Source: Candidatus Velthaea sp. (GTDB lineage Bacteria > Vulcanimicrobiota > Vulcanimicrobiia > Vulcanimicrobiales > Vulcanimicrobiaceae). Taken from it: a stretch of DNA of 21,413 nucleotides. Each line of letters opens with the position of its first letter. Position 1 is the first letter of the stretch. The DNA lies in the NCBI GenBank assembly GCA_050012475.1, contig JBEKHC010000088.1, forward strand, positions 1 through 21,413, read 5' to 3'. Shown one piece after another: positions 980 through 17,364 of this stretch. A program made the translations under genes and the position numbers. The notes under the pieces are model-generated. The model saw only the letters and a program-made list of their open reading frames with translations. It was not told the origin of the DNA and did no database searches.

Positions 980-1432
980 TTGGGAGCATTCGCCGCGTTG
1001 ACGATTCCGCTCGACTTGTCACGGCCTGGTGCCGGTACTCTCGCTCTGGCTGCCGCGCAATCGACGGCGGGATCGACCGACGTCGCGATCGATGTTGCGC
1101 ACAACGAGCTCACGATGAAACTCCAAATGCCGGGCAACATCAAATCGATTATGAATCGCCTCAAGGCTGCGGGGTTTGCGATTCCTCCCAAGATCCGCGC
1201 CGTGGTTCCGGTCCGATCGCTAGGACTACCCGATCGACGTCCGGACGTCCCCCATATGCTCGCTCAAATCAATGCCTCGGAGCATGTAAGCGACGCTTCG
1301 CTAGACGGCGCTCAACTGACGGCGATGATCGGTCCGTCGTCCAAGGGCCTGTACCAGATTTACTGGTCGCTCATCCACGCCGGCCTGATGGCTCAGGACA
1401 CGCCGACACTCCCCGCTCTCCGAGGACTCTAG
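980..1432 (+). CDS. Hypothetical protein, probable tandem HMA/ferredoxin-like fold lacking CxxC
   Basis: Strong SD AAGGAGG at 966-972 and TTG start at 980 within ORF 854..1432. Two repeats end in LKAAGF and LIHAGL. Stop codon abuts the desaturase gene. Confidence 0.7.
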   Translation: MGAFAALTIPLDLSRPGAGTLALAAAQSTAGSTDVAIDVAHNELTMKLQMPGNIKSIMNRLKAAGFAIPPKIRAVVPVRSLGLPDRRPDVPHMLAQINASEHVSDASLDGAQLTAMIGPSSKGLYQIYWSLIHAGLMAQDTPTLPALRGL

Positions 1433-1434
1433 TT

Positions 1435-2859
1435 CTGCTCGTCTCGACCCACTCCCCGACTCCGGATGCACCGAGCTACACCGACGACACGCTCATTATC
1501 GGCGGCGGTGTGGCCGGGCTTGCCGCTGCGAAATTTCTCGCCGATGCCGGCCGCCGCGCGACGGTGCTCGAGAAGCGCGGCGTCTTAGGCGGAAAGCTCT
1601 CGTCGTGGCGCGATCGCGACGGCGACATCCTCGAAACGGGCTTACACTCGTTTTTTGGCGGGTACGACTTTCTTCATGAGCTCCTACGGGACGTCGGGAT
1701 CTCGCACCACGTCCTGTGGCAGCCGCATACGCTCACCTTCGCGATGCCGCCGGGGTTTTCCAACCGCGTCGGCGCGCAGGCGATTTTCGAAGAGTTTCAT
1801 TTCGTCGACGCCCCGTCGCCCTTGAACGGCGTCGGCGCGGTGCTCAACGCGAAATACGTTTTCAACGCGTTCGAGAAGCTGCTGTTCGCGACCGGAACGC
1901 TGCCGGTGCTCACCGGCGACCAGTCGTACGTCGAGCGTCAGGACGGCCTCACGTACGCCGATTGGCATCGCCGGCGCAAGATGTCCGAACACATGCTGGC
2001 CACGTTTTTCGCGCCGATGGCCTTGGCATTGAACTTCACTCCGGTCCAGCAGATTTCAGCCGGCGCGATGTTGCGCGTGATGGCGTATTTCGCCAGTTCA
2101 AAGAATGCGAGCCGGGCGGGATTTCTCGACGGGCCGCCGGTCGAACGTCTGATCGATCCGATCGCCGAGTATTGCCGCGAGCGCGGTCAGGTTGTCGAAA
2201 AGGATGCGCGCGTCGGCGAGCTGTTGTTCGAGGGCGGCCGCTGCATCGGCGCGCGCTGCACCGATGGCCGCACGTATTATGCCGCCAACGTCATCATCGC
2301 GACGCCGGTCCACAACGCCGCGCAGCTTTTGCCGGCCGAGATGCTGCGCGACCCGCTCGTCGCCGGCGTCGGAAAACTCACGTCGTCGCCGGTCATCAAC
2401 GGCCACTTCTGGTTCGACCGGCCCGTCTCCAAGCACACGAATTTGATTTTCGGAGCCGGAACGCTGCTGCCGGTTCACGCCGACCTCGGTCAGGCGTCCG
2501 CCGGTTACGAGTGGCCCGGAAAATCGTTCATCGAGGTCTGCATCGCCCCGGCCGACGAGCTCATGAAGCTCGACAACGACGCGGTGATCGATCTGGTGAT
2601 GCGCGATATGCATCGGCTCTATCCGCTTGCGACCAAGGAGTCACTGGTGAAAGCGAAGCTGGTGCGTGTGCCCAAGAGCGTGCACCGCGCGGTACCCGGC
2701 GCGGAACGGTTACGGCCGGGCGCGCGGACTCCGGTCGGCAACCTCTTCTTGGCGGGATGCTACACCAATCATCGGTTCCCGGCCAGCATCGAAGGCGCGA
2801 TCCGTAGCGCCCGGTATGCCGTGGACGGCGTCCTGGAATTCGCCGGTGCTCGGACTTAA
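1435..2859 (+). CDS. crtP: Phytoene desaturase, CrtP/PDS (cyanobacterial/plant type) family FAD-dependent carotene desaturase
   Basis: Rossmann motif IIGGGVAGLAAA. PDS-like motifs GGKLSSWRDRDGDILETGLHSFFGGY, PSPLNG, YVERQDGLT, ALNF, FLDGPPVERL and ASIEGA. Adjacent to crtB. Start uncertain: CTG at 1435 after GAGGA, with no ATG/GTG/TTG between the upstream stop and the FAD motif. CrtP versus CrtQ assignment needs a phylogeny. Confidence 0.78.
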   Translation: MLVSTHSPTPDAPSYTDDTLIIGGGVAGLAAAKFLADAGRRATVLEKRGVLGGKLSSWRDRDGDILETGLHSFFGGYDFLHELLRDVGISHHVLWQPHTLTFAMPPGFSNRVGAQAIFEEFHFVDAPSPLNGVGAVLNAKYVFNAFEKLLFATGTLPVLTGDQSYVERQDGLTYADWHRRRKMSEHMLATFFAPMALALNFTPVQQISAGAMLRVMAYFASSKNASRAGFLDGPPVERLIDPIAEYCRERGQVVEKDARVGELLFEGGRCIGARCTDGRTYYAANVIIATPVHNAAQLLPAEMLRDPLVAGVGKLTSSPVINGHFWFDRPVSKHTNLIFGAGTLLPVHADLGQASAGYEWPGKSFIEVCIAPADELMKLDNDAVIDLVMRDMHRLYPLATKESLVKAKLVRVPKSVHRAVPGAERLRPGARTPVGNLFLAGCYTNHRFPASIEGAIRSARYAVDGVLEFAGART

Positions 2860-3742
2860 ACCAGGACTCGCCCTCGCCCCCGCCGAGGCGCCCGAGAGCT
2901 CGTATCTCGACGACTGCTACCGCCATTGCCGGGACATCGCCCGCAGCAATTCGAAAACGTTTTACCTTAGCTCGCTCTTCTTGTCGCCGGAGAAACGGCG
3001 TGCCGTGTGGGCCGTCTACGCATTTTGCCGGACGGCCGACGACATCGTCGACCAGGTCACGCCGGCCACCGAACGGCTGGCGGCGATCGATTATTGGGAG
3101 CGCGCGCTCCTTGCTGCTTATAATGGTAGTCCTAAGGACCGGATCATGGTCGCGCTCTACGACGCGATCCGCCGCTTCGACATCCCGCTGCAGCCCGCAC
3201 TGGATCTGCTGCGCGGGGCGCGGCTGGATATTACCGTGCGCCGCTACGCGACCTACGACGATTTGCGCGAGTACTGCTATTTGGTCGCCTCGACCGTCGG
3301 TTTGCTGACCTCGCCGATCTTGGGCTACACGTCCGACGCTGCGCTCGACTACGGTGTCGCCTTGGGCCGCGCCATGCAGATGACCAACATCCTGCGCGAC
3401 GTCGGCGAAGACGCGCGGATGGGCCGGATCTATCTGCCGCTCGACGAGATGCAGCAGTTCGGCTACACCGAGTCGTCGCTGTTCGAGGAAGTCGTCGACG
3501 GCGCGTTCGTCGCGCTCATGAAGTTCCAAATCGACCGGGTGCGCCGGCTCTACGCCGAGGCCGAGCCGGGCATCGCGATGCTGGCGCCGGAGTCGCGCTA
3601 CACGGTTCGCCTGGCACTGACCCTGTACCGGCAGATCCTGCGCTCGATCGAGGATAACCGCTACGACGTGTATTCCAAACGCGCGTACGTTCCGTTCCGC
3701 TCGAAGATGCTCGCCGCGATGACGGTCGCCTTCATCCGCTAA
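2846..3742 (+). CDS. crtB: Phytoene synthase
   Basis: Motifs SKTFYLSS, VYAFCRTADDIVD, YCYLVASTVG and LGRAMQMTNILRDVGEDARMGRIYLP. GTG start at 2846 overlaps the end of the desaturase. Confidence 0.93.
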   Translation: MLGLKPGLALAPAEAPESSYLDDCYRHCRDIARSNSKTFYLSSLFLSPEKRRAVWAVYAFCRTADDIVDQVTPATERLAAIDYWERALLAAYNGSPKDRIMVALYDAIRRFDIPLQPALDLLRGARLDITVRRYATYDDLREYCYLVASTVGLLTSPILGYTSDAALDYGVALGRAMQMTNILRDVGEDARMGRIYLPLDEMQQFGYTESSLFEEVVDGAFVALMKFQIDRVRRLYAEAEPGIAMLAPESRYTVRLALTLYRQILRSIEDNRYDVYSKRAYVPFRSKMLAAMTVAFIR

Positions 3743-4085
3743 CGGCGGCTCTCCGAGGCGGCTCTCCAAAAGTCCACGTTCCGCGTATTGCCCGCGCTTC
3801 GCTTCCCGTGGGCCGGGCGCCGGACCCGAACACCCCCGCGGCGCGGTCTAGGATGGCCCAAACGCCCTGCACCGCGGCTCGCGCCGAACGGTACAGGTCC
3901 GGCGCAATGCACCGGACCGTGCTGCTGCTGCGGTGATGCAGCGCACCGCTCGGGTCGGGCCCTCGGGCAGATGCTTTGAGCGTCATGCAGGCGCCATCAC
4001 GGCCCAAGGCCGGCCCCCCATTCGCAAGCGCGCGAACCGGATGTCGGCCAAAGCAACGGGGCACCTGCTAACCAGAGGGCGACGG

Positions 4086-4129
4086 CGTAGTACGCACTAC
4101 ACCGGAGCAGCAGTCGGTTTGTCTATAGT
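4086..4129 (+). promoter_or_regulatory. Putative puf promoter: palindrome cGTAG-tacgca-CTACa (4086-4101, GTA-N8-TAC) plus -10 TATAGT (4124-4129)
   Basis: Perfect GTAG-N6-CTAC inverted repeat with 23 nt between TAC and a near-consensus -10, about 50 nt upstream of pufB. Confidence 0.6.
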
Positions 4130-4181
4130 TCATCAAGAGCCGTGCGCTGTACGGCCGCTCATCACCGCTTAGGGGGTCATC

Positions 4182-4370
4182 GTGGCATCTCTTGATCCAG
4201 CGGTCGGCTCCGTCTATGAGATCGGCAACGATCAAGTACCGGAAGTCTACCGCGACTTTTTCAATAACGCGGACTGGACCGCGCACCGCTTTACGGTCTA
4301 CGGATCGTGGGTTTTCTTCATCATTGCCGTCGTCGCTCACATTTTCGTGTGGGCCTGGCGTCCGTGGTAG
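4182..4370 (+). CDS. pufB: Core light-harvesting antenna beta subunit (Chloroflexota B808-866-like)
   Basis: Single TM helix with AVVAHIFVWAWRPW (BChl-ligating His and WxPW). N-terminal DQVPEVYRDFFNNADWTAH. First gene of the puf operon. Confidence 0.95.
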   Translation: MASLDPAVGSVYEIGNDQVPEVYRDFFNNADWTAHRFTVYGSWVFFIIAVVAHIFVWAWRPW

Positions 4371-4382
4371 GAGGCGAGAAGC

Positions 4383-4568
4383 ATGATCATTCGTCGTCCG
4401 TATAACTTCCGCGCAACGCTCGGCGCCTATGTGCTTGCCGGCGTCGTCGTCGCGTTCCTGATCCACTTCATCGTGCTCTCCTCGCCGAAGTACAACTGGA
4501 TCTTCCCTGCCCAGACCTCCGGAACCGGAACGTCAACCCAAGTCAACCCGGCGCCGGGCGCCAAGTAG
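4383..4568 (+). CDS. pufA: Core light-harvesting antenna alpha subunit
   Basis: VAFLIHFIVLSSPKYNW motif (AxxIH...L.S..YNW), GGAGG upstream, located between pufB and pufL. Confidence 0.95.
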   Translation: MIIRRPYNFRATLGAYVLAGVVVAFLIHFIVLSSPKYNWIFPAQTSGTGTSTQVNPAPGAK

Positions 4569-4596
4569 TCTGCCGTAAAGAAGCGGGGAGAGCGTC

Positions 4597-5418
4597 ATGC
4601 TCGAATTCGAAAGCGCCTATAGGAAGCCGGGAAACACGCTCTTCCGCTCGATCTTAGGAACGGACCCCTTCGATTGGTGGGCGGGCCGTTTCTACGTCGG
4701 ATTGTGGGGCGTCGTTACGATCCTGGCCATCGCGGCCGGCGTGGGCGTGTTGTTCATCGCTGTCGGCCAATACGGTGACTGGGATTTGTGGCGTGCGAAC
4801 GTTCATGCGCCGCTGCGTGAGTATGGACTGGGCGTTGCTCCGTTCATGCAAGGCGGTGCGTGGCAAGCCGTCGTCATCCTGGCGACCGTCGCGTTCGTTT
4901 CCTGGGCGTTACGCGAAGTGGATATCTGCCGCAAACTCGAGATGGGCTACCACGTCCCGCTCATGTTCTCGTTTGCGATTTCGGCGTGGGTGACGCTGCA
5001 GATCATTCGCCCGCTCTGGATGGGCTGCTGGTGCGAAGGCTTCGATCTCAGTTATTCGGGTCACTTGACCTGGGTTTCCAACACGGGCTTCCGCTATCAG
5101 AACTTTTATCTCAATCCGTTTCACGCGTACGCCATTTTAGGATTCTTCCTTACGGCAATGGCGCTCGCGATGCACGGCAGCGCGATCCTCGGGACGTACA
5201 ACACCGACAAAGACCCGGTTCAAGAAGAAGCCAACGTCGACAATTTCTGGCGTGACTACATCGGCTACTCGATCGGCGAGTACGGGATTCACTTCCTGGG
5301 ATTCTGGTTGGCGATTTATACGCTGATCGTCAGCGATCTCTGCATCTTGACATCGGGCACGTTGGTGCAGGACTGGGTCGCTTTCTGGCAATGGCACATA
5401 CCCTTCATGCCGCACTAA
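4597..5418 (+). CDS. pufL: Type II photosynthetic reaction centre L subunit
   Basis: Motifs DPFDWW, FVSWALREVDICRKL, GHLTWVSNTG (His L153), NPFH (L173), AMHGSAIL (L190) and GYSIGEYGIH (Ser L223, His L230). Confidence 0.98.
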   Translation: MLEFESAYRKPGNTLFRSILGTDPFDWWAGRFYVGLWGVVTILAIAAGVGVLFIAVGQYGDWDLWRANVHAPLREYGLGVAPFMQGGAWQAVVILATVAFVSWALREVDICRKLEMGYHVPLMFSFAISAWVTLQIIRPLWMGCWCEGFDLSYSGHLTWVSNTGFRYQNFYLNPFHAYAILGFFLTAMALAMHGSAILGTYNTDKDPVQEEANVDNFWRDYIGYSIGEYGIHFLGFWLAIYTLIVSDLCILTSGTLVQDWVAFWQWHIPFMPH

Positions 5419-5445
5419 ACGAGCAGCAAGGAAAGCGCATATACG

Positions 5446-6459
5446 ATGGCAACTGTCATCAACGAGCAGCCCACTAGCGAGCCGCCGTTCGAGCTCCCTG
5501 GACCAAGCTACTACGACGAGCGTGATATCGTCGGAGTCCGGCTGGGCGTGCCGTTTCGGTTGCCCTTCTTGGGGCTCTTCGGCCTCCCGACGCAGCTCGG
5601 CACGATCTGGCTGGGTTCTTGGGGCGTTGCTTCCGTCGCGCTGTTCATCGCCGGGCTTTTCGTTTTGTTCGCGTCGGGCATCGCGTCGATGAACGGCAAC
5701 GCGCTCGAATACATTCGACATTTCGCCAACGTCCAAGAGCTGCCGCCGGACGGCTTGGGCATGGCGCGCAGCTTGTCGGCCGGCGGCTATTGGGAAATTA
5801 ACATGGTCCTGTGGGCCGGCGCCGTCGTCTGCTGGGCCGGCCGCTGCTGGGAACGTCTGCTGCGCTACAGCTGGCGGCCGTATCTGTTCTTCGCCTGGCT
5901 ATCCGCGATTCTCCTGACGTCCACGATCTGGGTCTTCCGCCCGATCATGATGGGAACGTGGGCTGAGGCGCCGGGCTTGGGTCTCAACGCCGACCTCGAC
6001 TGGGCGCAGAACTTCAGCGTGCTGTGGGGCAACTTGTACTACAATCCCTGGCACCAGCTCGCGATTTTCTTCCTGTTCGGATCGACGATGCTGTGGGGCA
6101 TGCACGGCGCGACGATTCTCGCAACGTCCGCCGAGGGCAGCCACCACGAAGTCGCCGAGATCAAAGACATGCACTCGGGCTCGCACAAGTCGATGCTGTT
6201 CTGGCGCTGGACCATGGGCTGGAACGCCAACCCCAAGACCATTCACGATTGGATCTGGTGGTTCTCGGTCGGTGTCGTGGTGAGCTGCTCGATCGGCATC
6301 ATCAGCACGGGCTGGATCACCAATGACTGGTACGTCTGGGGGGTCGACAACGGAACGGTCGCGCAATACGGGCCGCTGACGCGCGACGCGATCAACCTGC
6401 GCCCGAACCAAGTGAAGCTCGAGCTGCCGGTCTATATGCCGCAGCCGGTGAACCGCTAA
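5446..6459 (+). CDS. pufM: Type II photosynthetic reaction centre M subunit
   Basis: Motifs QLGTIWLG, RPIMMGTWAEAP, GNLYYNPWH (His M202), MHGATILA (M219) and LFWRWTMGWNA...IH (Trp M252, His M266). Confidence 0.98.
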   Translation: MATVINEQPTSEPPFELPGPSYYDERDIVGVRLGVPFRLPFLGLFGLPTQLGTIWLGSWGVASVALFIAGLFVLFASGIASMNGNALEYIRHFANVQELPPDGLGMARSLSAGGYWEINMVLWAGAVVCWAGRCWERLLRYSWRPYLFFAWLSAILLTSTIWVFRPIMMGTWAEAPGLGLNADLDWAQNFSVLWGNLYYNPWHQLAIFFLFGSTMLWGMHGATILATSAEGSHHEVAEIKDMHSGSHKSMLFWRWTMGWNANPKTIHDWIWWFSVGVVVSCSIGIISTGWITNDWYVWGVDNGTVAQYGPLTRDAINLRPNQVKLELPVYMPQPVNR

Positions 6460-7442
6460 TGAACATCAAACGCGTCCTCGGACCCATCGTCATCGTCTGC
6501 GTGCTCTCGTTATCGGGCTTGGTCCAGCCGCTCATCGACAAGGCTCGGGCGGCGGACGGCCCGGGTCAAGTCACCAGCAAGGCGGGTCCGTGGGCTCCCG
6601 GCGGTTCGACTGCCCCCGAAGCGCCGCATCTCTCATCGTCGATCGGCACCCAGGACGGCGGACAGATCCCGCCCGAGGCGCTCAAGGGCGTCGGCCCCGT
6701 CGATCAAAGCGCGCCGCTGGATTTCAGCGATCAGCCGGCCGCGGTCCCGCATCAATACGTCGGCGGTCGCACCTACAACGTGCAAGTCCTCAAACAGTAC
6801 TCGTACGTGCAGCTGCTGGGCCAGATGAACCAGTACACGGTGGCACTGGGCGTGCAGTGCACGTACTGCCACAACGTGCAGAACTTCGCGTACGACACGC
6901 CAACAAAGAGGGTTGCGCGGACGATGCAGATTATGTCCAACGAAGTTGGACGGTCGTGGGTCGATCCGATCAAGAAAGATTATCCGAACTACGCGGTCAA
7001 TGGTGCCGTGGGATGCGTAACGTGTCATCGCGGCGCTCCGCGAATGGGTGTTTCATGGAACATCGTGCCGGTGCAATTCTTGAACTACCGCTATAAATCG
7101 ACCAAGCAGGTCGGCTATGTGGTGAACTCGATGTACTCGGTGGCTCGGTCGCTGGGCGTGAACTGCCTGTTCTGCCACAACACGGCCGACTTCCTGACGC
7201 TTCAATACTATCCGACGAACCAGATCGCACATCGCATGTGGGCGATGGTCGATAAGATCAACCACGAGTATCTGCCGGCGAACATCAAGGCCGTTACGTG
7301 CTATACCTGTCACCAAGGTGCGAAGTGGCCGCAGGCGCTCGTGACCGCGGGCCTGGATCAGGCTCCCGCCGATGCGGTCGCCGCCCATCCGGAAGTTCAT
7401 GAGAATCCCGGAGCCCATCTAGCGTCGGGAGCGTTGCCCTGA
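6459..7442 (+). CDS. pufC: Reaction-centre-bound tetraheme cytochrome c subunit
   Basis: Four CxxCH motifs (CTYCH, CVTCH, CLFCH, CYTCH), N-terminal hydrophobic signal/anchor, and TAATG overlap with the pufM stop. Confidence 0.95.
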   Translation: MNIKRVLGPIVIVCVLSLSGLVQPLIDKARAADGPGQVTSKAGPWAPGGSTAPEAPHLSSSIGTQDGGQIPPEALKGVGPVDQSAPLDFSDQPAAVPHQYVGGRTYNVQVLKQYSYVQLLGQMNQYTVALGVQCTYCHNVQNFAYDTPTKRVARTMQIMSNEVGRSWVDPIKKDYPNYAVNGAVGCVTCHRGAPRMGVSWNIVPVQFLNYRYKSTKQVGYVVNSMYSVARSLGVNCLFCHNTADFLTLQYYPTNQIAHRMWAMVDKINHEYLPANIKAVTCYTCHQGAKWPQALVTAGLDQAPADAVAAHPEVHENPGAHLASGALP

Positions 7443-8123
7443 TTGGACCTCTTTTGGAGCTTGCCGGACTCGCGAGATTTCGCCGGCCTCACTGCCCCGC
7501 TCGATGAACTCTTCGGCGCTGCGCAATCGCGGAAGTATGAATCCGGTGCGTCGGTGTCCGATCCCGAGTTTGCACCGGAACGTGCGTTCCGGTGCGTCTC
7601 AGGCACGATCAAGGTAACGAAGCTCCTCGCGAGCGGACGCGAGATCCTCATCACGATCTTACAGACGGGCTCCGTCTGGAGCGATCGCGCGGTCCTCAAC
7701 GGCTACTGGCGCGACGTCTTCCTCGAAGCGATGGAGCCCAGCGAGATCGTCTCGGTCGACGCCGCCGCCTTCGAGCGCGTCGTGCGCTCATCGCCGGATC
7801 TGCTGGCCAAGTTCATGCTGCGCATCTCCGAGCAAGTCTCGGATGCCCTCACGCTGCTTGACGATTTCCGCGGCCGCGACGTTGCCTCGCGGCTGGCTCG
7901 GGTCCTCGTGCGCTTCTCCAAACAATACGGCGTGCCGACCGAACGCGGCGTCCGCATCGAACTCCCGGTCACCCACCAAGACCTCGCCAACATGATCGGC
8001 ACTGCGCGCGAAACAGTCTCTCGTAACATGGCCCGTTTCCGCCAGCAGGGCTACGTCAAAGACGGGCACGCCGCCACCCTCGAAATCCTCAACCTCGACT
8101 CGCTCGAAGCGCTCATCGTCTAG
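7443..8123 (+). CDS. Crp/Fnr family transcriptional regulator
   Basis: cNMP-type beta-barrel (SGTIKVTK...SGREILITILQTG) and HTH LPVTHQDLANMIGTARETVSR. TTG start immediately after the pufC stop. Confidence 0.93.
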   Translation: MDLFWSLPDSRDFAGLTAPLDELFGAAQSRKYESGASVSDPEFAPERAFRCVSGTIKVTKLLASGREILITILQTGSVWSDRAVLNGYWRDVFLEAMEPSEIVSVDAAAFERVVRSSPDLLAKFMLRISEQVSDALTLLDDFRGRDVASRLARVLVRFSKQYGVPTERGVRIELPVTHQDLANMIGTARETVSRNMARFRQQGYVKDGHAATLEILNLDSLEALIV

Positions 8124-8167
8124 CCGGTCAAGAAAGAATCGTCCCCTGCTTGCCCGCAGCGAGCCGG

Positions 8168-8208
8168 AAAAAAACGGCGGCACCCTTTCGGGGGTGCCGT
8201 TTGCTTGT
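8168..8208 (+). terminator. Rho-independent, probably bidirectional, terminator of the puf-crp operon
   Basis: Hairpin CGGCACCCT-TTCG-GGGGTGCCG (8178-8199) followed by TTTGCTTGT and preceded by an A7 tract. Confidence 0.8.
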
Positions 8209-8302
8209 GCGTCACGAAGGTCGGTGGCCAGCCGGGAGGGGGTAATTGGGTTGCCGGGCGTCCCCCGCAACCGAACGAGCCCCTCCCGCTCCCCACAGGC
8301 CG

Positions 8303-8345
8303 GGTGACGACTATCACCGTGCCTAATTCTCCGGATGCCTACGAT
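8303..8345 (+). promoter_or_regulatory. Putative class II Crp promoter of bchFCX: GGTGA-cgacta-TCACC (8303-8318) plus -10 TACGAT (8340-8345)
   Basis: Perfect GTGA-N6-TCAC Crp-box core, centred at about -41.5 if transcription starts near 8352. Confidence 0.65.
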
Positions 8346-8371
8346 AACCAACGGAGGGAGAACGTCCGCAC

Positions 8372-8839
8372 GTGGCATACGGGGATTCCGAACAAATGGT
8401 CGCTCGGCGAGCCGCGAGCGTATGGACCAAAATCCATCCGATTTTCGCCCTCGGCCAACTGCTCGCGTTCTTCGTGAGCGTCGGCTTCTTGATCGGTTAC
8501 TTCCGCGGGGCCGTTTCCATGGAGGCCGTGCACCAATCGGTGCTGGTCAAAGTCGCGCTGATGTTCGGTGCGATCATCACCGGCGCGCTGTGGGAGAAGG
8601 ACGTCTTCGGCCAATATTGGTTTGCCCCGGAGTTCCTAGCCGAAGACACGATGACCCTCAACGTGTTCATCTTGCACATCTCCTATCTCGGACTGGCGGC
8701 CGCGAATCCGGAGAACATCACCGTACAGATCGGCATGCTGATCGTAGCGTACGGCGTGTACATCGCGAACGTCGCTCAATACGTGGTGCGTACAGCGGTG
8801 CTGGGAAAGCACGTCGCCGTTCGGGTGCGCTCGCGGTGA
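8372..8839 (+). CDS. bchF: 3-vinyl (bacterio)chlorophyllide hydratase
   Basis: Motifs RRAASVWT, ITGALWEKDVFGQYWFAPEFLAED and AYGVYIANVAQY. Small membrane protein. Start is GTG 8372 or ATG 8396. Confidence 0.93.
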   Translation: MAYGDSEQMVARRAASVWTKIHPIFALGQLLAFFVSVGFLIGYFRGAVSMEAVHQSVLVKVALMFGAIITGALWEKDVFGQYWFAPEFLAEDTMTLNVFILHISYLGLAAANPENITVQIGMLIVAYGVYIANVAQYVVRTAVLGKHVAVRVRSR

Positions 8840-9795: not shown

Positions 9796-10814
9796 GCAAA
9801 AACTCCACCGTCGCCATCTACGGCAAGGGCGGTGCCGGAAAGTCTTTTCTCACCAGCATGACGGCGAAGACGCTGACCGAACGCGGCTTCAACACGTTGC
9901 AGATGGGCTGCGATCCCAAGCACGACAGCGTGGTCACGCATTTCGGCGGCGCGCTGATCCCGACGGTCCTCGGCACTTGGGCGCAGTACGAAAAAGAAGG
10001 CCGCGCCGACGATCTCGCTCCCGAACACATCATCTTTAAGGGCAACGGCGTCTATTGCATCGAGCTGGGCGGCCCGGAGTCGGCGCGCGGCTGCGGCGGA
10101 CGCGGCATCACCTTCGGCTTCTCACTGCTCGAAAAGTGGGGCTTGTCGGAGTGGAACTTCGATTACATGCTGCTCGACTTTCTCGGCGACGTCGTTTGTG
10201 GCGGCTTCGGCACGCCGATCGCGCGTTCGATGGCCGATAAGCTCATCATCGTCTGCAGCAACGAAGGCCAGTCGATGTACGCCGCCAACAACATCGCCTC
10301 CGCGGTCCGTTACTTCGCCGAGCAGGGCGGGAAAACGCGCTGCCTGGGCCTCGTCGTCAACAAAGACGACGGCAGCGGCAAAGCGCAAGCCATGGCAAAG
10401 TGGCTGGGCATTCCGGTGATCGCGTCGATGCCGCTCATCCCGCAAGACGAGGTCGTGATCGACGGCGTTCCCAACGAAGCCGTTCGCAGCGCCGTCGACA
10501 ACGTCATCGCGGCGATCGACGATCTCGACGCGGTCGTCCCCAACAAAGTCGACTTCGTTCAATTCATGATGCACCTCTCGGGCAACGCTGCCGAGATGGA
10601 CGGCACGGCCGTCACCGCCGACGAACTCTGGTCGCTGCCCGAAGTTGTGCCCAAAGCCAAAAAAATCCAGCGCGAACTCGTCCTCGCCGGCATCCCCAAC
10701 GGCGGACGCGCCGATCATCGCTACATCGAAGCGGAAGGCGACGGCGAGAAAGTCCTTGGACCGACGATCGTATCCGTCGGCGGAGGGAATGTGCCGGCTG
10801 CCGACTGGGGCTGA
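9786..10814 (+). CDS. bchX: Chlorophyllide a reductase iron protein subunit X
   Basis: NifH-like motifs YGKGGAGKS, GCDPKHDS, ELGGPESARGCGGRGI and DFLGDVVCGGFGTPIARSMA. ATG at 9786 overlaps the end of bchC. Confidence 0.96.
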   Translation: MGVSKNSTVAIYGKGGAGKSFLTSMTAKTLTERGFNTLQMGCDPKHDSVVTHFGGALIPTVLGTWAQYEKEGRADDLAPEHIIFKGNGVYCIELGGPESARGCGGRGITFGFSLLEKWGLSEWNFDYMLLDFLGDVVCGGFGTPIARSMADKLIIVCSNEGQSMYAANNIASAVRYFAEQGGKTRCLGLVVNKDDGSGKAQAMAKWLGIPVIASMPLIPQDEVVIDGVPNEAVRSAVDNVIAAIDDLDAVVPNKVDFVQFMMHLSGNAAEMDGTAVTADELWSLPEVVPKAKKIQRELVLAGIPNGGRADHRYIEAEGDGEKVLGPTIVSVGGGNVPAADWG

Positions 10815-10815
10815 T

Positions 10816-10973
10816 CGTGGGAGAGCGGGGAGGCGACATTGGTGGGGCGGGGACGCCCGCGATTTTACATCCATGTAAAATCGCTACTGCCAAAAAATCT
10901 GCTCCCGCCCTCCGGGCTCCGCAGATTTGTTTGAGCCCCCGCACCACCCATGCCGCCTCCCCGCTCAGCCACG
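10816..10973. repeat. Branched inverted-repeat element (MITE/REP-like element or structured RNA)
   Basis: 37-bp outer arms 10816-10852 and 10937-10973 match at 32/37 positions. They enclose a perfect hairpin GCGATTTTACAT-CC-ATGTAAAATCGC (10859-10884) and a second hairpin CAAAAAATCTGC...GCAGATTTGTTTG (10891-10933). Confidence 0.8.
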
Positions 10974-11274
10974 CCGCCAGCGAGTCGGCAGCCGATGGAA
11001 GAGTGGCAGAGTCGGTGGTGTTTCGGGCTCGGAGCAGAAACACGCGCTTGATGCCTTTTTCTTTTTTAAGACAAAGTGGTACATCGAAGTTTGCAGCCTT
11101 CCCCCGCATCGAAATGCGAAGCTACGCGTGCGCGGCGATTGAGCGCTTCGAGATGAACCGGGCGATGCGCGCGGGTCTCCGGTTGGCGCCTGCAGCTCCC
11201 CTCCACCAGCGGCCCAACGCGGTCATCCGCAACAACGAACCAACATCAGAACGCCACGAGCGTTCGGGGTTTTC

Positions 11275-12600
11275 ATGAGTAAACAGGCTTCTTCGATGTG
11301 CCCGGCGTTCGGGGCTGTGCGGAATTTGTTGCGTATGGAAGATGCGATGCCCATCGTTATTTCCAGCGGCGACGGATGTTTGTATGGGCACACCTTCGTG
11401 GCGCATTTTTATGTGGCGAACCGGCCGATCTTTTCGCCCGGGGTGAGTTCGGAGATTTGGGCCAAGGGCTCGGTGTTCGATGAGCTCAAGCTCATGGTGC
11501 ACGAAATGGCGGAGAAACATCAGCCGTCGATCATTCCGATTTGTTCGCTGTGCGTGTCGGATACCGTGGGCTTGCCGTTCGATCTGCTGCCCAAGCAGAT
11601 CGGGCACACCGAGGTCATTTATGTACCGCTGCCGGCGTACAGCGTTCATACGCATTCGCGAGCGAAAGACATCGTCGTCGATTCGCTGGTTTGGCGGTTG
11701 CCGCCGCAGCGCAAAACGCGTGCGGGCGTGAACGTGATCGGAGAGCTGTTTCCCAGCGATCCGATTCATATCGACGAAGTGCTGCGGCGCATCGGAACGC
11801 ACGTGAATACGACGGTGCCCGGTCCGCGCTGGTCGGACTATGTCGCGATGGTGGACGGGGCGCTCAATGCGCCGGTCCATCCGTTTTACTCCGAGAGCGT
11901 CAAGCGGATGAAGATGAAGCAGGGTCTGCCGTTCATCGAGGGCGCACCGGTCGGCATCGATGGAACCTATGCGTGGATCCGCGGCGTCGGTGAGGCGCTC
12001 AAGCTGAATCCGGCGACGGTGAACGCCGTTGCCGCCGAGGAGCGCGATAAGGTGATCGCGGCGATGGCCGATTATCCGCTACACGGGCTCACGTTCATGG
12101 TGGCCGGCTATGAAGGGCATGAGTTTCTGCTCGTGCGGCTGCTGATCGAAGCGGGGGCCAAGGTGCCGTTTCTGTCGACCGCCGTGAGCTCGAATCCGTT
12201 GGCGCGCGAAGAGGAAGCTTGGTTGCGCGAGCACGGCTGCACGGTGTTGTACGGCGCGAATTTCGACGACGAGATCGGGGCACTCGAAGATCATCCCTAC
12301 GATTGCGTGATCGGGACGACGCCGTTGTGCGCGCACGCCAAGGAGCTCGGCATTCCGTCGATTTACTATACGAACGCGATGGCGACGCGTTCGCTCATGT
12401 TTGCGGCCGGTGCCAGCGATATCTTGTCGCTGATGCTTTCGACCTATCGCAGCAAGCAGCGGTATCACAAGATTGCGAGTTTCTTTAGCGAGACGGGGAC
12501 GCCGCAGCGGAGCTACTCGTCGTGGGCGCCCAAGATCGATTTGACCGAGCATCTGCTTGCGAATGGCGCGTTTGCGCCTGCCGACGGAGGAACGCCGTGA
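11275..12600 (+). CDS. bchY: Chlorophyllide a reductase subunit Y
   Basis: Three cluster Cys in SMCPAFG, GCLYG and SLCVSD, plus HSRAKD, GYEGHEFLLVRLLIEAGA and GIPSIYYTN. Confidence 0.96.
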   Translation: MSKQASSMCPAFGAVRNLLRMEDAMPIVISSGDGCLYGHTFVAHFYVANRPIFSPGVSSEIWAKGSVFDELKLMVHEMAEKHQPSIIPICSLCVSDTVGLPFDLLPKQIGHTEVIYVPLPAYSVHTHSRAKDIVVDSLVWRLPPQRKTRAGVNVIGELFPSDPIHIDEVLRRIGTHVNTTVPGPRWSDYVAMVDGALNAPVHPFYSESVKRMKMKQGLPFIEGAPVGIDGTYAWIRGVGEALKLNPATVNAVAAEERDKVIAAMADYPLHGLTFMVAGYEGHEFLLVRLLIEAGAKVPFLSTAVSSNPLAREEEAWLREHGCTVLYGANFDDEIGALEDHPYDCVIGTTPLCAHAKELGIPSIYYTNAMATRSLMFAAGASDILSLMLSTYRSKQRYHKIASFFSETGTPQRSYSSWAPKIDLTEHLLANGAFAPADGGTP

Positions 12601-12634
12601 TCGGCGGAGCGGGTTCAGGCGGGGGACGCTGCTG

Positions 12635-14203: not shown

Positions 14204-14226
14204 CGCCGATCGATCAGGAAGCGCTC

Positions 14227-15036
14227 GTGCTGCTGGCAGCGGCGCGATTGCGAATGGGCGGACGGCGGCTGCGGGCCTTGGCCGCCGGCGACGGGAGCGC
14301 GGTGCGCGAGTTCGTTACCGCCGACTCGGCGTTGCGGCTGGCCGAGGCGCGACGTGACGCGCGCGCCGATGCGGCAATGCTCGAGCGCCTCTCCGCGCGC
14401 GTGGTCCCGCTTCGCAGCGCCGAATACCCGGCCGGACTGCGCGACCTCCGGATGCCGCCGGCGTTTCTGTGCGTGCGCGGCACGTTGCCCGCGGACGGCG
14501 TCGCAATCGTCGGGGCGCGGGATGCCAGCAGCGCGGCGTGCCGCTTTGCCTTCGATCTCGCCCAGGCGCTGGGGCGTGCGGTCGTGAGCGGATTGGCACG
14601 CGGCGTCGATACGGCGGCTCACCGCGGCGCGCTGGCGGCGGGGTTGCCGCAGATTGCGTACGTCGGGACCGGCGTCGCGCGAACGTACCCGCCCGAAAAT
14701 GCCCAGCTCGCCGACGAGATCATCGCGAGCGGCGGCGCGATCGCTTCCGAGCGCCTGCCCAACGATGCGGTGACGCGTTGGGCACTCACCCAACGCGATC
14801 GATTGCAGGCCGCTCACGCCGCTGCGGTCGTATTGATCGAAAGCGAAGCGGAGGGCGGCGCGATGCACACACTGCGCTTCGCGCGGGAATTGGGACGCCG
14901 GCGTTTTGTTTGCGATCGTCCAACCACGGGAAACCGTGCGGCGGCTGCCGACGGAGCGACCCTCTTGCCCGCTGAGGCCGTCGCCGCCGCTGCCGCCATC
15001 ATCGCTTCTCTCCCGCACCAGGAGCCCGCAGGTTGA
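14227..15036 (+). CDS. dprA: DNA-processing protein DprA/Smf family
   Basis: Motifs YPAGLRDLRMPPAFLCVRG, VAIVGAR, VVSGLARGVDTAAHRGAL and YPPEN. Short form lacking the C-terminal domain. Confidence 0.88.
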   Translation: MLLAAARLRMGGRRLRALAAGDGSAVREFVTADSALRLAEARRDARADAAMLERLSARVVPLRSAEYPAGLRDLRMPPAFLCVRGTLPADGVAIVGARDASSAACRFAFDLAQALGRAVVSGLARGVDTAAHRGALAAGLPQIAYVGTGVARTYPPENAQLADEIIASGGAIASERLPNDAVTRWALTQRDRLQAAHAAAVVLIESEAEGGAMHTLRFARELGRRRFVCDRPTTGNRAAAADGATLLPAEAVAAAAAIIASLPHQEPAG

Positions 15037-15428
15037 GCGCCTTCCAAGCATACGATCTCGATAAGGTCCAGCTCCTTCGCAACGCCGATTTGGATTCCGC
15101 GCCGCTCGGAGTGATCGTCGTCGACCGCAACGGGAAAATTCTCGAGTACAACGCGTACGAACGCTCGTTGGCCCATATGGGCGACCGCGACGTCACCGGC
15201 CGAAACTTCTTCACCGACGTCGCTCCCTGTACGGCGATCCGCGACTTTCAGGGACGCTTTGGCGAATTCCTCAACTCCGAAGAGACGAGCATCGAGCCGT
15301 TCGAGTTCATTTTCGCGTTTCCGCACGGGCCCGAACGGGTGTCCGTCGTATTTGTCCGCCTTGCAGACGACCGGGAACGCGCAACGATTTGCGTGATCCG
15401 CACGGAGGTAGCCGACTTATCGACCTGA
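15033..15428 (+). CDS. pyp: Photoactive yellow protein (PAS fold, p-coumarate chromophore)
   Basis: LDSAPLGVIVVD..G.ILEYNAYE and GRNFFTDVAPCT give Tyr42, Glu46 and Cys69 equivalents in exact register with H. halophila PYP. TTG start overlaps the dprA stop. Confidence 0.88.
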   Translation: MSAFQAYDLDKVQLLRNADLDSAPLGVIVVDRNGKILEYNAYERSLAHMGDRDVTGRNFFTDVAPCTAIRDFQGRFGEFLNSEETSIEPFEFIFAFPHGPERVSVVFVRLADDRERATICVIRTEVADLST

Positions 15429-16708
15429 CCATTGGAGCCGATCCGCGGTCCGTGCTTGCCGGGGGCGCGAGTTCACCGGTGCGCACCGGCCACGCCGTCG
15501 GCGGTGAACCGTTCCTGCAAAGTCACGGCGCGGGCGCCTACGCGTATGCCGATGGCCGGCGCTACATCGATTACGTCATGGCGTACGGACCGCTCTTGCT
15601 CGGGCACGCTCATCCGGCATTGTGCGCCGGACTCGATCGTGTCGCAGCGCGCGGCATGGTGTATGGGTCGACGACGGCCGATGAAGTCGCCCTGGGCGAA
15701 CGCATTCGCGATCATCTGCCGTCGATGGAACGTGTGCGCTTCACGACGACCGGCAGCGAGGCGGTGATGAGCGCGATCCGGGTAGCGCGCGCCTTTACCG
15801 GACGCGACGCAATCGTGAAGTTTTCCGGCAACTATCACGGTCACTTCGATCTCGCGCTGCTCGACGCCGGCGCCTCGGCCCACACCCGGTCGGCCCGGCA
15901 TTCGGGCATCCCTGCGGCGATCACCGCCGATCTGTTCGTCGCCCGCTACAACGATCTGGCCAGCGTCGATGCGGCGCTCGAACGCTGCGGGTCGCGTCTC
16001 GCTGCAATCGTCGTCGAGCCGATCGTCGGCAACATGGGCCTGGTGCTGCCGGCGCCCGGGTTCCTCGCAGGTCTGCGGGAGCGCGCGCACGCGTGCGGCG
16101 GACTGCTGCTGTTCGATGAAATCATCACCTGGCTGCGGCTCGGTTTCGGCGGCGCGCAGGGGCGCCTGGGCGTACGACCGGACCTCACGACGATCGGCAA
16201 GATCATCGGCGGGGGCGCTCCGTTGGCCGCGTTCGGCGGACGCGCGGACATCATGGCGGTGCTGGCGCCGGACGGCCCGTGCTTCACCGGTGGAACGCAT
16301 GCCGGTAACCCGTTCGCGGTCGAACTCGGGCTGCGAACGCTTGGCTGGCTCGAGACGCACGGTGATTGCTACGCCCGGATGGACGAGCGGGCGCAGCGGT
16401 TGGCGGCCGGGATCCGCACGGCCTTGCGCGCGCTCGACCTCGACTATGCTGTCCTCCAATTGGAGTCGATCGTCGACTTCAAGTTTCGTCCCGGCGCGCC
16501 GACGCGCAATTACGACGATGCGCAGCGGGCCGATGCCTCACTCTTTGCGGCGTTCTATCATGCGCTGCGCAAGCGCGGCGTCTTGCTGGCTCCCTCGCAA
16601 AACGAAGTCATGTTTCTTTCGACCGAACATTCCGATGACGACATTGACGAGACGATCGCCGCCATCGAAGCGTCGCTGCGCGAACTGCGCGCGGAGGGCA
16701 AGCTCTAA
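15389..16708 (+). CDS. hemL: Glutamate-1-semialdehyde 2,1-aminomutase
   Basis: Motifs GGASSPVR, YIDYVMAYGPLLLGHAHP, KFSGNYHGH, VEPIVGNMG and PLP-Lys PDLTTIGKIIGGG. Start uncertain: TTG 15389, CTG 15425 or GTG 15452. Confidence 0.88.
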   Translation: MRDPHGGSRLIDLTIGADPRSVLAGGASSPVRTGHAVGGEPFLQSHGAGAYAYADGRRYIDYVMAYGPLLLGHAHPALCAGLDRVAARGMVYGSTTADEVALGERIRDHLPSMERVRFTTTGSEAVMSAIRVARAFTGRDAIVKFSGNYHGHFDLALLDAGASAHTRSARHSGIPAAITADLFVARYNDLASVDAALERCGSRLAAIVVEPIVGNMGLVLPAPGFLAGLRERAHACGGLLLFDEIITWLRLGFGGAQGRLGVRPDLTTIGKIIGGGAPLAAFGGRADIMAVLAPDGPCFTGGTHAGNPFAVELGLRTLGWLETHGDCYARMDERAQRLAAGIRTALRALDLDYAVLQLESIVDFKFRPGAPTRNYDDAQRADASLFAAFYHALRKRGVLLAPSQNEVMFLSTEHSDDDIDETIAAIEASLRELRAEGKL

Positions 16709-17364
16709 TGCCGAATGTTTTGGGCGCCGACGCCATCGCGGCCGAACTGGCTCGCCGGCCGGGCTGGACGTACGACGGCGCGGTCATCACGCGCACCTTC
16801 GATCGGGGCGACTTCAACGGATCGATCGCTTTCGTCAACGCCGTCGCTGCGGCAGCCAATCGCCTCGATCATCATCCCGACATCGCGCTGGCCTGGAGCG
16901 AAGTGACGATCTCGACGTCGTCGCACGACGTCAAGGGAATCTCCCCGCGCGATCTGGCCCTCATCGACGCCATCGAGGCACTTTGACATGCTCCCCGGCC
17001 GCAAGGACGGGGATTCGGTTGGGCGAACCAAGGGGCCGCGCCGCTCACGGAGCGCAACGCTTGCTGCTCTCGCAGAGAATCCGCACCTATTCGGCCCTTC
17101 GGAATCTTCAGCCCAGCGCACGAAGGCTTCGTGCGCTGAACGATTCTCTTCCAGATGTGGTGACAGCGCGAGCACCCGCGCGAGGTAGTACGCAGATCGA
17201 CGCGCAGCAGCAGGCCGCCCTGGTTTTGGCTGCGCCGGCTGAGGGCCCGCTTTCGCCGTCACCTTGGTGCCGGGATTGGCGAGCGTGCCTTTTGCCGAAG
17301 CCGCCGTGATGTTGACGACGCGCAGGTCTTCCTGGATCGCGTTCGCGTGGCTCTTCCGAATCAT
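16705..17364 (-). CDS. Possible hypothetical protein or gene remnant; only about 17090-17364 looks coding
   Basis: The 5' half has gene-like codon usage and fills an otherwise empty gap. The 3' half runs antisense through phhB. No recognised motif. Confidence 0.25.
   Translation of the reverse strand: MIRKSHANAIQEDLRVVNITAASAKGTLANPGTKVTAKAGPQPAQPKPGRPAAARRSAYYLARVLALSPHLEENRSAHEAFVRWAEDSEGPNRCGFSARAASVALRERRGPLVRPTESPSLRPGSMSKCLDGVDEGQIARGDSLDVVRRRRDRHFAPGQRDVGMMIEAIGCRSDGVDESDRSVEVAPIEGARDDRAVVRPARPASQFGRDGVGAQNIRH
16708..16986 (+). CDS. phhB: Pterin-4-alpha-carbinolamine dehydratase
   Basis: Motifs LARRPGW, AFVNAVAAAANRLDHHPDI and SHDVKGISPRDL. TAATG overlap with the hemL stop. Confidence 0.9.
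   Translation: MPNVLGADAIAAELARRPGWTYDGAVITRTFDRGDFNGSIAFVNAVAAAANRLDHHPDIALAWSEVTISTSSHDVKGISPRDLALIDAIEAL

Follow-up and report, generated by a model that had tools for sequence, protein, structure and literature searches.

Photosynthesis genes of a Candidatus Velthaea-like member of the Vulcanimicrobiota, and two CRP/FNR-family proteins that may control them

A contig that carries genes for a type II photosynthetic reaction centre, its antenna, bacteriochlorophyll and carotenoids raises two questions: from which bacterium does it come, and how might its operons be controlled? The stretch of DNA analyzed here (the window) is such a contig, C88, in its entire length of 21,413 bases. It belongs to the source bin G000 (5.36 Mb in 204 contigs, with a completeness of 93.8% and a contamination of 5.3%), and its G+C content is 59–71% throughout. 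A sequence-only reading of the window had described a mosaic cluster of a deep-branching, non-proteobacterial phototroph and had named the Eremiobacterota/Vulcanimicrobiota (WPS-2) as a fitting host. Our analyses indicate, with a probability of about 0.9, that the window is one contig of a photosynthesis gene set that is loosely grouped and belongs to a Candidatus Velthaea-like bacterium of the family Vulcanimicrobiaceae (phylum Vulcanimicrobiota, with the synonyms Eremiobacterota and WPS-2). For the second question we propose a tentative answer, to which we give somewhat less than an even chance: a two-tier, lineage-specific circuit of CRP/FNR-family activators would replace PpsR-type repression, a conserved protein called here orf980 would act as an accessory protein of the carotenoid desaturase, and the desaturase gene itself would start with CTG.

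The window was compared with two sets of relatives. The kin set comprised 41 genomes, and six of them hold a reaction centre: G000, its genus mates G001, G002, and G003, and two other phototrophs of the family, G007 and G017. The negative counts given below for crp1, crp2, orf980, PYP-like genes, and the bch box include the unpublished genomes G022, G024, and G036. A scan of species-representative genomes gave 12 related loci, of which L003, L004, and L012 coincide with the puf contigs of G001–G003. By their titles, nine of these loci fall within Vulcanimicrobiota (two Ca. Velthaea, one Ca. Lustribacter, one Vulcanimicrobiales, and five "Vulcanimicrobiota bacterium"), two are "uncultured bacterium", and one, L011, is assigned to Armatimonadota.

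The host assignment rests on several markers. G000 was placed in one genus with G001–G003, and all three genus mates carry the reaction centre. The RpoB protein, encoded on another contig, is 98% identical to that of the three genus mates and 92% identical to that of G007 and G017. PufM is 82–87% identical to its counterparts in the genus mates; among the species-representative loci it reaches 87 and 85% with the two Ca. Velthaea loci and 77% with Ca. Lustribacter. A protein-database search with PufM returned 1089 proteins at E ≤ 0.001, and among the best 120 of these about 100 clusters showed 58–85% identity, including Candidatus Velthaea (77%) and Vulcanimicrobium alpinum (64%). A PufM tree of 74 rows was built from the window, 8 of the loci, and 65 proteins of the database, after 10 of the 120 matches had been dropped for a length outside 290–400 residues and about every second near match had been thinned. 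The window fell in a five-row clade with both Ca. Velthaea loci (support of 99 in the Shimodaira–Hasegawa-like approximate likelihood ratio test, SH-aLRT), within a larger clade of 59 rows to which V. alpinum also belongs. In an alignment to solved L chains, PufL has Phe at the position of purple L-Tyr162 and Tyr at that of L-His168: the query reads ...vsntgF...nfYlnpfH and the purple sequences ...vsntgY...(f/h)Hynp.H. Both substitutions are described for the phylum in the text of Ward 2019 (PMC6664022). The PufM clade, the RpoB identity, the genus assignment, and the PufL substitutions together bear out the host that had been suggested from the letters alone.

Some further observations on the reaction centre go beyond the window. 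The family contains a second, far more divergent reaction-centre lineage (L027 and L028 of G007, L029 of G017, and the database protein P0104), whose PufM is about 50% identical to that of the window although RpoB is 92% identical. In G007, pufBALMC occurs twice; the copies lie about 28 kb from each other and show 98% identity over 4.4 kb. Three Vulcanimicrobiaceae PufM proteins (P0010, P0045, and P0059), and by precomputed domains also P0056 and P0070, have a C-terminal OmpA-family peptidoglycan-binding domain, an extension of about 100 residues that is absent from PufM of the window.

By their family matches, the genes encode a type II reaction centre with separate L and M subunits and a tetrahaem cytochrome and without an H subunit, together with a beta/alpha antenna of Chloroflexota-like type. 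BchF, BchC, and BchXYZ cover the late part of bacteriochlorophyll a (BChl a) synthesis, CrtB and one phytoene desaturase of the PDS type carry out the initial reactions towards carotenoids, and HemL serves the C5 tetrapyrrole route. In the family scans, crtP-like/crtB, pufBALMC, bchFCX, bchYZ, pyp, and hemL were all present, intact, and on the + strand, as the sequence-only reading had stated. The puf operon runs on that strand through pufB (antenna beta, 4182–4370) and pufA (antenna alpha, 4383–4568), a pair that matched NF040862/NF040861, pufL (4597–5418; PF00124, 230 bits), pufM (5446–6459; PF00124, 190 bits), and pufC (6459–7442; PF02276, 80 bits), which codes for the tetrahaem cytochrome subunit with four CxxCH motifs. 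The genes pufL and pufM are separate open reading frames (ORFs), as had been claimed, with 28 nt between them, in one operon with pufB, pufA, and pufC. Downstream on the same strand follow bchF (8372–8839; PF07284, 113 bits), bchC (probable start GTG 8836, end 9795; TIGR01202, 249 bits), bchX (9786–10814; TIGR02016, 300 bits), bchY (11275–12600; TIGR02015, 391 bits), and bchZ (ORF from 12557, probable start ATG 12635, end 14203; TIGR02014, 439 bits). Nearly all bch and puf matches of the window score under the NCBIfam curated cut-offs, as is expected for a divergent lineage.

Neither puhA nor ppsR was matched by any ORF of the window, in agreement with the sequence-only reading. Genome-wide, the puhA model TIGR01150 was over its cut-off in none of the four genus genomes (the best match in G000 had 21.8 bits against a cut-off of 200), and PF03967 (the PRCH model) had no match in G000; as caveats, TIGR01150 was over its cut-off in none of 14 control genomes either, and a metagenome bin of 93.8% completeness cannot prove that puhA is absent. 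Two weak matches to the puhA model, on C16 and C134 (21.8 and 19 bits), cover the barrel part only and were rejected as far under 200. Neither PpsR nor CrtI was found over cut-off in G000.

The remaining genes of BChl a synthesis that the sequence-only reading had asked for genome-wide (bchIDH, bchLNB, acsF/bchE, and bchG) lie on other contigs of G000: bchH, bchL, and a bchI/D-like gene on C54, bchN, bchB, and bchG on C97, bchM and acsF on C52, and two copies of bchE on C6 and C60. The name bchM is inferred only from the position of an ORF between a bch box (see below) and acsF. The BchD model is matched in its N- and C-terminal parts by one 648-residue open frame, an observation compatible with the published BchI-BchD fusion. 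Both BchE matches are full-length (C6:27454–28941, 822 bits; C60:29337–30821, 809 bits); one genus mate has a single copy and two have none. According to the text of Ward 2019 (PMC6664022), half of the genomes of the phylum have BchE, and the two copies fit this.

The set was then compared with known systems. In the text of Ward 2019 (PMC6664022), bchC lies between bchF and bchX, no more than 2 kb separate bchF from the reaction-centre genes upstream of it, and puhA is missing; in the window, the end of pufC (7442) and the beginning of bchF (8372) keep within that spacing. The passages of Yabe 2022 (PMC9758169) on gene order describe pufBALMC and bchFCXYZ sub-clusters in V. alpinum WC8-2 and in "Velthaea" metagenome-assembled genomes, with a PYP homologue, and the published gene set of the phylum includes AcsF and a fused BchI-BchD. 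The V. alpinum and Ca. Eremiobacterota sets share with ours the same sub-clusters, the lack of puhA, AcsF, BchE in some genomes, a PYP homologue, and L162 Phe/L168 Tyr, and the window differs from them by nothing in kind. The absorption peaks of V. alpinum are given as 798 and 868 nm (Yabe 2022, PMC9758169, text). In this species, the locus tags of the PYP homologue (WPS_26150) and of an orthologue of the regulator Crp1 described below (WPS_26220) differ by seven tags, in keeping with a layout like that of the window.

Among solved structures (PDB 8iug, 5yq7, and 8ydm), Roseiflexus castenholzii and Chloroflexus aurantiacus have the antenna subunits and the cytochrome closest to those of the window, and they also lack an H subunit. 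The best relatives of pufB/pufA are the B808-866 subunits of Roseiflexus and Chloroflexus (E of 1.6e-11 and 3.1e-8), whereas the purple-bacterial light-harvesting complex 1 (LH1) gave E values of 5e-6 or worse; the best relative of PufC is the Chloroflexus cytochrome c-554. The beta subunit of the window aligns over the N-terminal part of the Chloroflexota beta, including a His, which fits an antenna of the B800-plus-B866 type. The two lineages differ from the window in their L and M subunits: in Roseiflexus these are fused in one chain of 641 residues, and in Chloroflexus pufLM is split from pufBAC, whereas here L and M are separate and all puf genes stand in one operon. PufL, whose top match is the fused Roseiflexus chain, scores about equally against Roseiflexus (240 bits, L part) and purple bacteria (246 bits) and therefore belongs to neither type. 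Purple-bacterial clusters share the pufBALMC order and BChl a synthesis by BchF, BchC, and BchXYZ, but they have puhA, PpsR/CrtJ, and CrtI, none of which is over cut-off in our genome, where the desaturase is of the PDS type. The mosaic features pointed out earlier (a Chloroflexota-like antenna and PufC, unfused L/M, the pufBALMC order, and a PDS-type gene as the only phytoene desaturase) are real, yet they are known traits of the phylum. The sequence-only reading had made novelty depend on the host taxon. We kept this criterion, and since Yabe 2022 already describes phototrophy and the same sub-clusters for the host genus, the cluster is not novel: it is an ordinary further member of the published Eremiobacterota photosynthesis gene set, in a further species-level genome of a listed phototrophic genus.

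The comparison with relatives revealed conserved palindromes at the promoters of the window. Upstream of pufB there is a puf-type box, GTAGT-N4-ACTAC (4087–4100, + strand), followed about 24 nt downstream by a −10-like hexamer, TATAGT (4124–4129). In the alignment, the palindrome GTAGY-N4-RCTAC was exact in 11 of the 12 sequences that hold this region and had one mismatch in L011. It is the sole exact match in the window (0.01 expected), and only four exact sites occur in the 5.36-Mb genome, one of them before a second antenna beta/alpha pair on C103. Of the remaining two, one is inside a coding region on C26 and one precedes a secreted-protein-like ORF on C2. The pufB promoters of G007 and G017 have GTAAC-N4-GCTAC, which leaves GTA-N8-TAC as the common core. 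A variant, GAAGC-N4-ACTAC (881–894, + strand), precedes orf980-crtP-crtB together with a −10-like TATGAT (917–922); it has two mismatches to the 16-mer pattern, and its right half-site and spacing are kept in 8 of the 12 aligned sequences.

The third promoter, that of bchF, has a different box of the GTGA-N6-TCAC class, GGTGAC-N4-TATCACC (8303–8318, + strand), about 22 nt upstream of a −10-like TACGAT (8340–8345). This bch-type box is the sole exact match of its kind in the window; it was found before bchF in 11 of 12 sequences (it is missing in L011) and is also present in G007. The motif was defined at bchF and the genome was scanned afterwards, which gave seven further exact GTGAY-N4-RTCAC sites. 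Three of these lie directly before bchH, bchL, and bchN, and a variant of the box occurs 71 nt before the ORF (bchM) that precedes acsF. Orthologous sites are present in G001–G003, where the exact 16-mers on photosynthesis-gene stretches number 5/5, 4/4, and 5/5, respectively. Other exact sites in G000, at C39:64745 (inside a 390-residue ORF), at C68:1091 (beside ORFs without a Pfam match), and at C3:38343, were treated as chance or unknown. With a start site set 7 nt after each −10-like hexamer, the puf box is centred at −42.5 and the bch box at −41.5. A centre at about −42 is the class II position of CRP/FNR activators.

A Crp/Fnr-family regulator is encoded between the two sub-clusters. Its gene, crp1 (7443–8123, + strand), starts at the base after the pufC stop, and its matches to PF13545 (73.9 bits), PF00325 (39.3 bits), and PF00027 (33.7 bits) are all above their cut-offs and show a cNMP-binding-like domain with a Crp-type helix-turn-helix at the C-terminus. 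Crp1 has a single Cys in the whole protein, and an Fnr-type N-terminal cysteine cluster is not present. Crp1 shares its fold family with NtcA and E. coli CRP; its closest solved relatives are NtcA proteins (E of 1e-20), with 77 bits to the NtcA model against a cut-off of 245. The recognition helix is TARETVSR, and its R-E-x-x-x-R equals the pattern of E. coli CRP. Orthologues with at least 69% identity were found only in the six reaction-centre genomes of the 41, and the other 35 reach at most 33%; the orthologue of V. alpinum, WPS_26220, is 77% identical. In G007 the layout is pufBALMC, orf980, crtP, crtB, crp1, bchFCX, so that crp1 still adjoins the bchF box. After crp1, a GC-rich hairpin (8178–8199) is followed on the + strand by TTTGCTTG; in the signal scan it was recorded for the − strand, together with a T run. 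This hairpin probably ends the puf-crp1 transcript.

The second regulator, Crp2, is a protein of 361 residues encoded upstream of bchM-acsF in G001–G003 and present at L016:5228–6310 (− strand); in G000 the gene is split by a contig break (C20:1–996, − strand, and C52:2–178, + strand). It is present in the six reaction-centre genomes and in G020, and in none of the other 34 kin genomes. The recognition helix, RVTVTR, is identical to that of the solved NtcA proteins (PDB 2xgx, 8h3v, and 3la2), from which Crp2 differs by an additional N-terminal stretch of about 160 residues without a Pfam match and by its proposed targets, which are photosynthesis genes.

CRP reads GTGA through its Arg-Glu...Arg helix, and NtcA reads GTA-N8-TAC. 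The puf-type box has the NtcA form, with a −10 hexamer about 22 nt downstream. The helices of the two proteins fit these rules, and we therefore tentatively assign Crp1 to the bch box and Crp2 to the puf box. The circuit would then work as follows. Each of the three promoters of the window would have a 14-bp palindrome about 42 nt upstream of its likely start, at the position of a class II activator. The GTA-N8-TAC box would mark the antenna/reaction-centre operon, the second antenna pair, and, in degenerate form, orf980-crtP-crtB, and the GTGA-N6-TCAC box would mark five bacteriochlorophyll operons, those of bchF, bchH, bchL, bchN, and bchM-acsF. Crp2, with its NtcA-type helix and a putative N-terminal sensor domain, would switch on the antenna, reaction-centre, and carotenoid operons. 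Crp1, the product of the last gene of the puf operon, would switch on the five bacteriochlorophyll operons, and because of this position of crp1 the expression of the antenna and reaction centre would feed forward into pigment synthesis. Members of the same protein family, FnrL and CrpK, take part in photosynthesis-gene control in Rhodobacter sphaeroides, according to PMC4263372. The role proposed here is alike, but Crp1 lacks the Fnr-type cysteine cluster. The two boxes of the window also differ from the FNR consensus and from the PpsR palindrome.

Several points weigh against this proposal. The box of the carotenoid operon is degenerate in its left half (GAAGC). Exact counts of the bch box do not separate phototrophs from other genomes (0–5 in non-phototrophs, one in G007, and none in G017), and because of this the argument is carried by the positions of the sites only. 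A generic sigma-70 scan found nothing at the boxed promoters, whose start sites are inferred from the −10-like hexamers. The assignment of the regulators to their boxes is drawn by analogy from the recognition rules of CRP and NtcA. L011 has neither crp1 nor the bch box before bchF. The kin genomes are not independent, so that co-occurrence counts overstate the support. Finally, G000 has a second copy of Crp1 (C19:35155–35829), 82% identical and with the same helix, in an unrelated neighbourhood; none of the three genus mates has one, and it could be a paralogue or come from a co-binned relative.

It is also conceivable, though in our view unlikely, that the boxes are real and have to be read otherwise: one regulator might serve both, Crp1 might act at the puf box, other factors might bind, for instance the Crp paralogue that is paired with a PYP-like gene, or the boxes might be operators for repression. 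G000 encodes at least eight Crp-family proteins, a PYP-like gene stands divergently beside another Crp paralogue in all six reaction-centre genomes, and the closest solved relatives of Crp1 are the NtcA proteins, whose site is GTA-N8-TAC. On the other side, Crp1 has Glu in the helix where NtcA has Val, whereas Crp2 has exactly RVTVTR; crp1 adjoins the bchF box in both layouts of the genes; and centres of about −41.5 and −42.5 suit class II activation.

The beginning of the carotenoid operon differs from what had been described. The sequence-only reading took the stretch from 980 as part of crtP; instead, 980–1432 (+ strand) is a separate conserved gene of 150 residues, orf980, which belongs to no known family. 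A Pfam search with it gave a single 13-bit match under cut-off and no usable family. The database holds 52 homologues, all "hypothetical" where named, and in nine of the loci the protein is 31–79% identical. In the kin set, orf980 was found in 7 of 41 genomes (the six with a reaction centre and G020), all seven of which have photosynthesis genes. Its place is always before crtP, or before crtB in L007 and L008, which lack crtP. An AlphaFold2 model with a predicted local distance difference test (pLDDT) score of 86.4 shows two tandem beta-alpha-beta-beta-alpha-beta, ferredoxin-like (HMA/ACT-like) domains without Cys motifs; the nearest folds are the tandem HMA domains of CopA and the ACT pairs of aspartokinase, with a low template modelling (TM) score of about 0.45. 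A complex prediction of orf980 with the crtP-like protein scored 0.00 (mark 0.32) and is evidence neither way.

The crtP-like gene (1435–2859, + strand; TIGR02731, 332 bits against a cut-off of 569) is the only PDS-type gene in G000. Its ORF is open from 940, and the conserved part starts at about 1483. No in-frame ATG, GTG, or TTG exists between 1400 and 1500 in the window, and in eight of eight sequences none lies in frame from the orf980 stop to the FAD-binding motif of the desaturase. All eight have an in-frame CTG within 0–5 nt of the orf980 stop; in the window it is CTG 1435, 2 nt past the stop. The alignment thus suggests that crtP probably starts at CTG 1435, translationally coupled to the stop of orf980. 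A fusion of the two genes by programmed frameshift was considered and rejected as unlikely, since the frame would have to change by −1 in some sequences (the window, L003, L004, L009, L010, and L012) and by +1 in others (L002 and L005). The next gene, crtB (phytoene synthase; ORF 2666–3742, + strand), matched PF00494 with 274 bits and a cyanobacterial-type CrtB model with 309 bits. This model begins at residue 78 of the ORF, and from this and the in-frame starts listed the true start is probably later, at 2816 or 2846.

The match scores of these genes also invite another interpretation, which we consider improbable: orf980 and the crtP-like and crtB-like genes could make squalene or hopanoid precursors in the manner of HpnD/HpnE, and not carotenoids. 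Relative to their cut-offs, HpnD (243/279 bits) and HpnE (222/283) fit about as well as CrtB (309/550) and PDS (332/569), but the raw scores are higher for the latter two, and the family scans showed no HpnC-like third gene in the cluster. The three genes occur together only in genomes with photosynthesis genes, and beside puf genes. V. alpinum makes carotenoids, as the text of Yabe 2022 (PMC9758169) reports, and G000 has no CrtI over cut-off.

In one genome of the kin set, G020 (80% complete), no reaction-centre gene was seen. On its contigs C92, C115, and C163 there are orf980-crtP-crtB, where a contig ends, the Crp2 gene with a bch box after it, and a gene of the PYP-like kind. G020 is probably a phototroph with unassembled puf genes.

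There are also alternatives for the host. Below the tier of 58–85%, PufM identity among the best 120 of the 1089 matches falls to 50% (P0104) and then to at most 43%, with a named alphaproteobacterium at 40% over the full length, and in the tree the 59-row clade is split from a 15-row outgroup with a support of 100. A position of PufM inside Proteobacteria, which the sequence-only reading had named as contrary evidence, was thus not seen. The relation of the phylum clade to Chloroflexota and Proteobacteria rests on papers, since the PufM tree is without named Chloroflexota sequences. A contig mis-binned from, or recently transferred from, a purple bacterium, Gemmatimonadota, or Chloroflexota, and hence an ordinary cluster, could be suspected from the 5.3% contamination of the bin and from a pufBALMC order common in Proteobacteria (Yabe 2022, PMC9758169, text), but it is already contradicted and very remote given these PufM identities and this split, puhA, PpsR, and CrtI all under cut-offs, flanking mrp and hemL genes that are 73–92% identical and syntenic in the Ca. 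Velthaea loci, and L and M that are unfused, unlike those of Roseiflexus. Equally contradicted, and hardly credible, is a host from a deep lineage that is new and does not belong to the phototrophic Eremiobacterota described so far, which would extend the known range of phototrophy: the scores under the NCBIfam cut-offs and the Armatimonadota title of L011 could suggest it, but the low scores are common to the whole phylum, RpoB is 98% identical to that of three genus mates whose puf contigs are titled Ca. Velthaea or Vulcanimicrobiota, and PufM is 82–87% identical within the genus.

Locus L011 itself has a PufM 64% identical to ours and nested inside the Vulcanimicrobiota clade, with bchF directly after pufC. 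Its label could be a binning or labelling error, or the result of a transfer.

The order mrp (on the − strand), orf980, crtP, crtB, pufBALMC, crp1, bchFCXYZ, a DprA-like gene in some, pyp, hemL, and dehydratase is common to the 12 loci, except that L011 is without crp1 and L007 and L008 are without crtP. The earlier map had its named genes right and missed orf980, crp1, the DprA-like gene, and the dehydratase. At the left end, an mrp/apbC-like gene for an Fe-S cluster carrier ATPase (2–880, − strand; PF10609, 238 bits; NF041136, 232 bits) is truncated by the contig end and divergent from the cluster, and it has the same position in 9 of the 12 loci. At the right end, hemL (15389–16708, + strand; NF000818, 458 bits) and a gene for pterin-4a-carbinolamine dehydratase (16708–16986, + strand; NF002017, 80.5 bits; PF01329) are both syntenic in the relatives. 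Position 16986, which had been given as the end of the cluster, is the end of the dehydratase gene, and hemL stops at 16708. Beyond the cluster, the family scan found a chemotaxis receptor (17557–19464) and a fragment of an aldo-keto reductase.

Between bchZ and hemL there are two genes on the + strand. The DprA-like gene (14227–15036; PF02481, 149 bits) shares its last 4 nt with the beginning of the PYP-like gene; its product has the Rossmann-type domain only and, among solved structures, is closest to a DprA and to ShosA, a DprA-like antitoxin. It was found in four of the seven loci that reach this position and is missing in L004 and L005. The PYP-like PAS protein (15033–15428; TIGR02373, 78 bits, under the cut-off of 143) keeps Tyr42, Glu46, and Cys69 of the solved PYP, with Thr50 replaced by Ala and Arg52 by Met. 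PYP-like paralogues occur in 8 of the 41 kin genomes, including all six with a reaction centre. One of them is divergent beside a Crp-family gene at G000:C15:24122–25187, with matching coordinates in G001, G002, G003, G007, and G017, and this arrangement is a candidate pair of light sensor and regulator.

A non-coding insert of 460 bp (10815–11274) separates bchX from bchY, and its first ~160 nt are a hairpin-forming repeat. The insert is present in the window and in L003 and absent in L004, L012, and L001, and seven further copies of the repeat, with 69–89% identity, lie on C1, C35, C62, C79, C80, C84, and C96. A look-alike of the repeat occurs in G007 (L028, ~11100–11500). Several small ORFs were rejected as genes: those at 3933–4172, 8205–8477, 10927–11142, and 16988–17188 match no family and are conserved little or not at all, and the similarity of the − strand ORF 10612–11109 to L003 is limited to the shared repeat insert and the overlap with bchX. 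Short single-helix membrane ORFs of about 41–43 residues were seen after pufC in G007 (L028, ~10860–10990) and between crp1 and bchF in L006–L009, and the window has no counterpart of them. A scan with Rfam over the full length of the window found neither riboswitches nor small RNAs; two plant miRNA models matched the repeat hairpin far under threshold. The generic signal scan found 4 promoter-like sites (3.4 expected) and 16 terminator-like sites (16.8 expected in shuffles) and is uninformative here.

Our searches found no published account of photosynthesis-gene regulation in Vulcanimicrobiota, nor one that joins the phylum with Crp in this context; the string "crp" occurs 0 times in Ward 2019 (PMC6664022) and Yabe 2022 (PMC9758169). 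The boxes, the place of crp1 between pufC and bchF, orf980, and the missing start of crtP are not mentioned in the passages of these two papers that were compared, and Ward Fig. S7, Yabe Fig. S2, and Yabe Table S8 may show some of the genes. As far as these searches show, the new details are the two boxes, the two phototroph-only Crp regulators, orf980, and the CTG start.

The cluster adds one genome to a lineage described in 2018–2022 and leaves the known distribution of phototrophy unchanged; its value is the comparison with relatives that it allowed. The phylum is the third with a cultured phototroph that has a type II reaction centre. The missing start codon of crtP and the unannotated orf980 matter for the automatic annotation of such genomes. 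The two boxes and the two phototroph-only regulators make up a testable circuit, and the cultured V. alpinum has the Crp1 orthologue WPS_26220. If the circuit is true, it would provide a feed-forward link between the supply of apoprotein and the supply of pigment.

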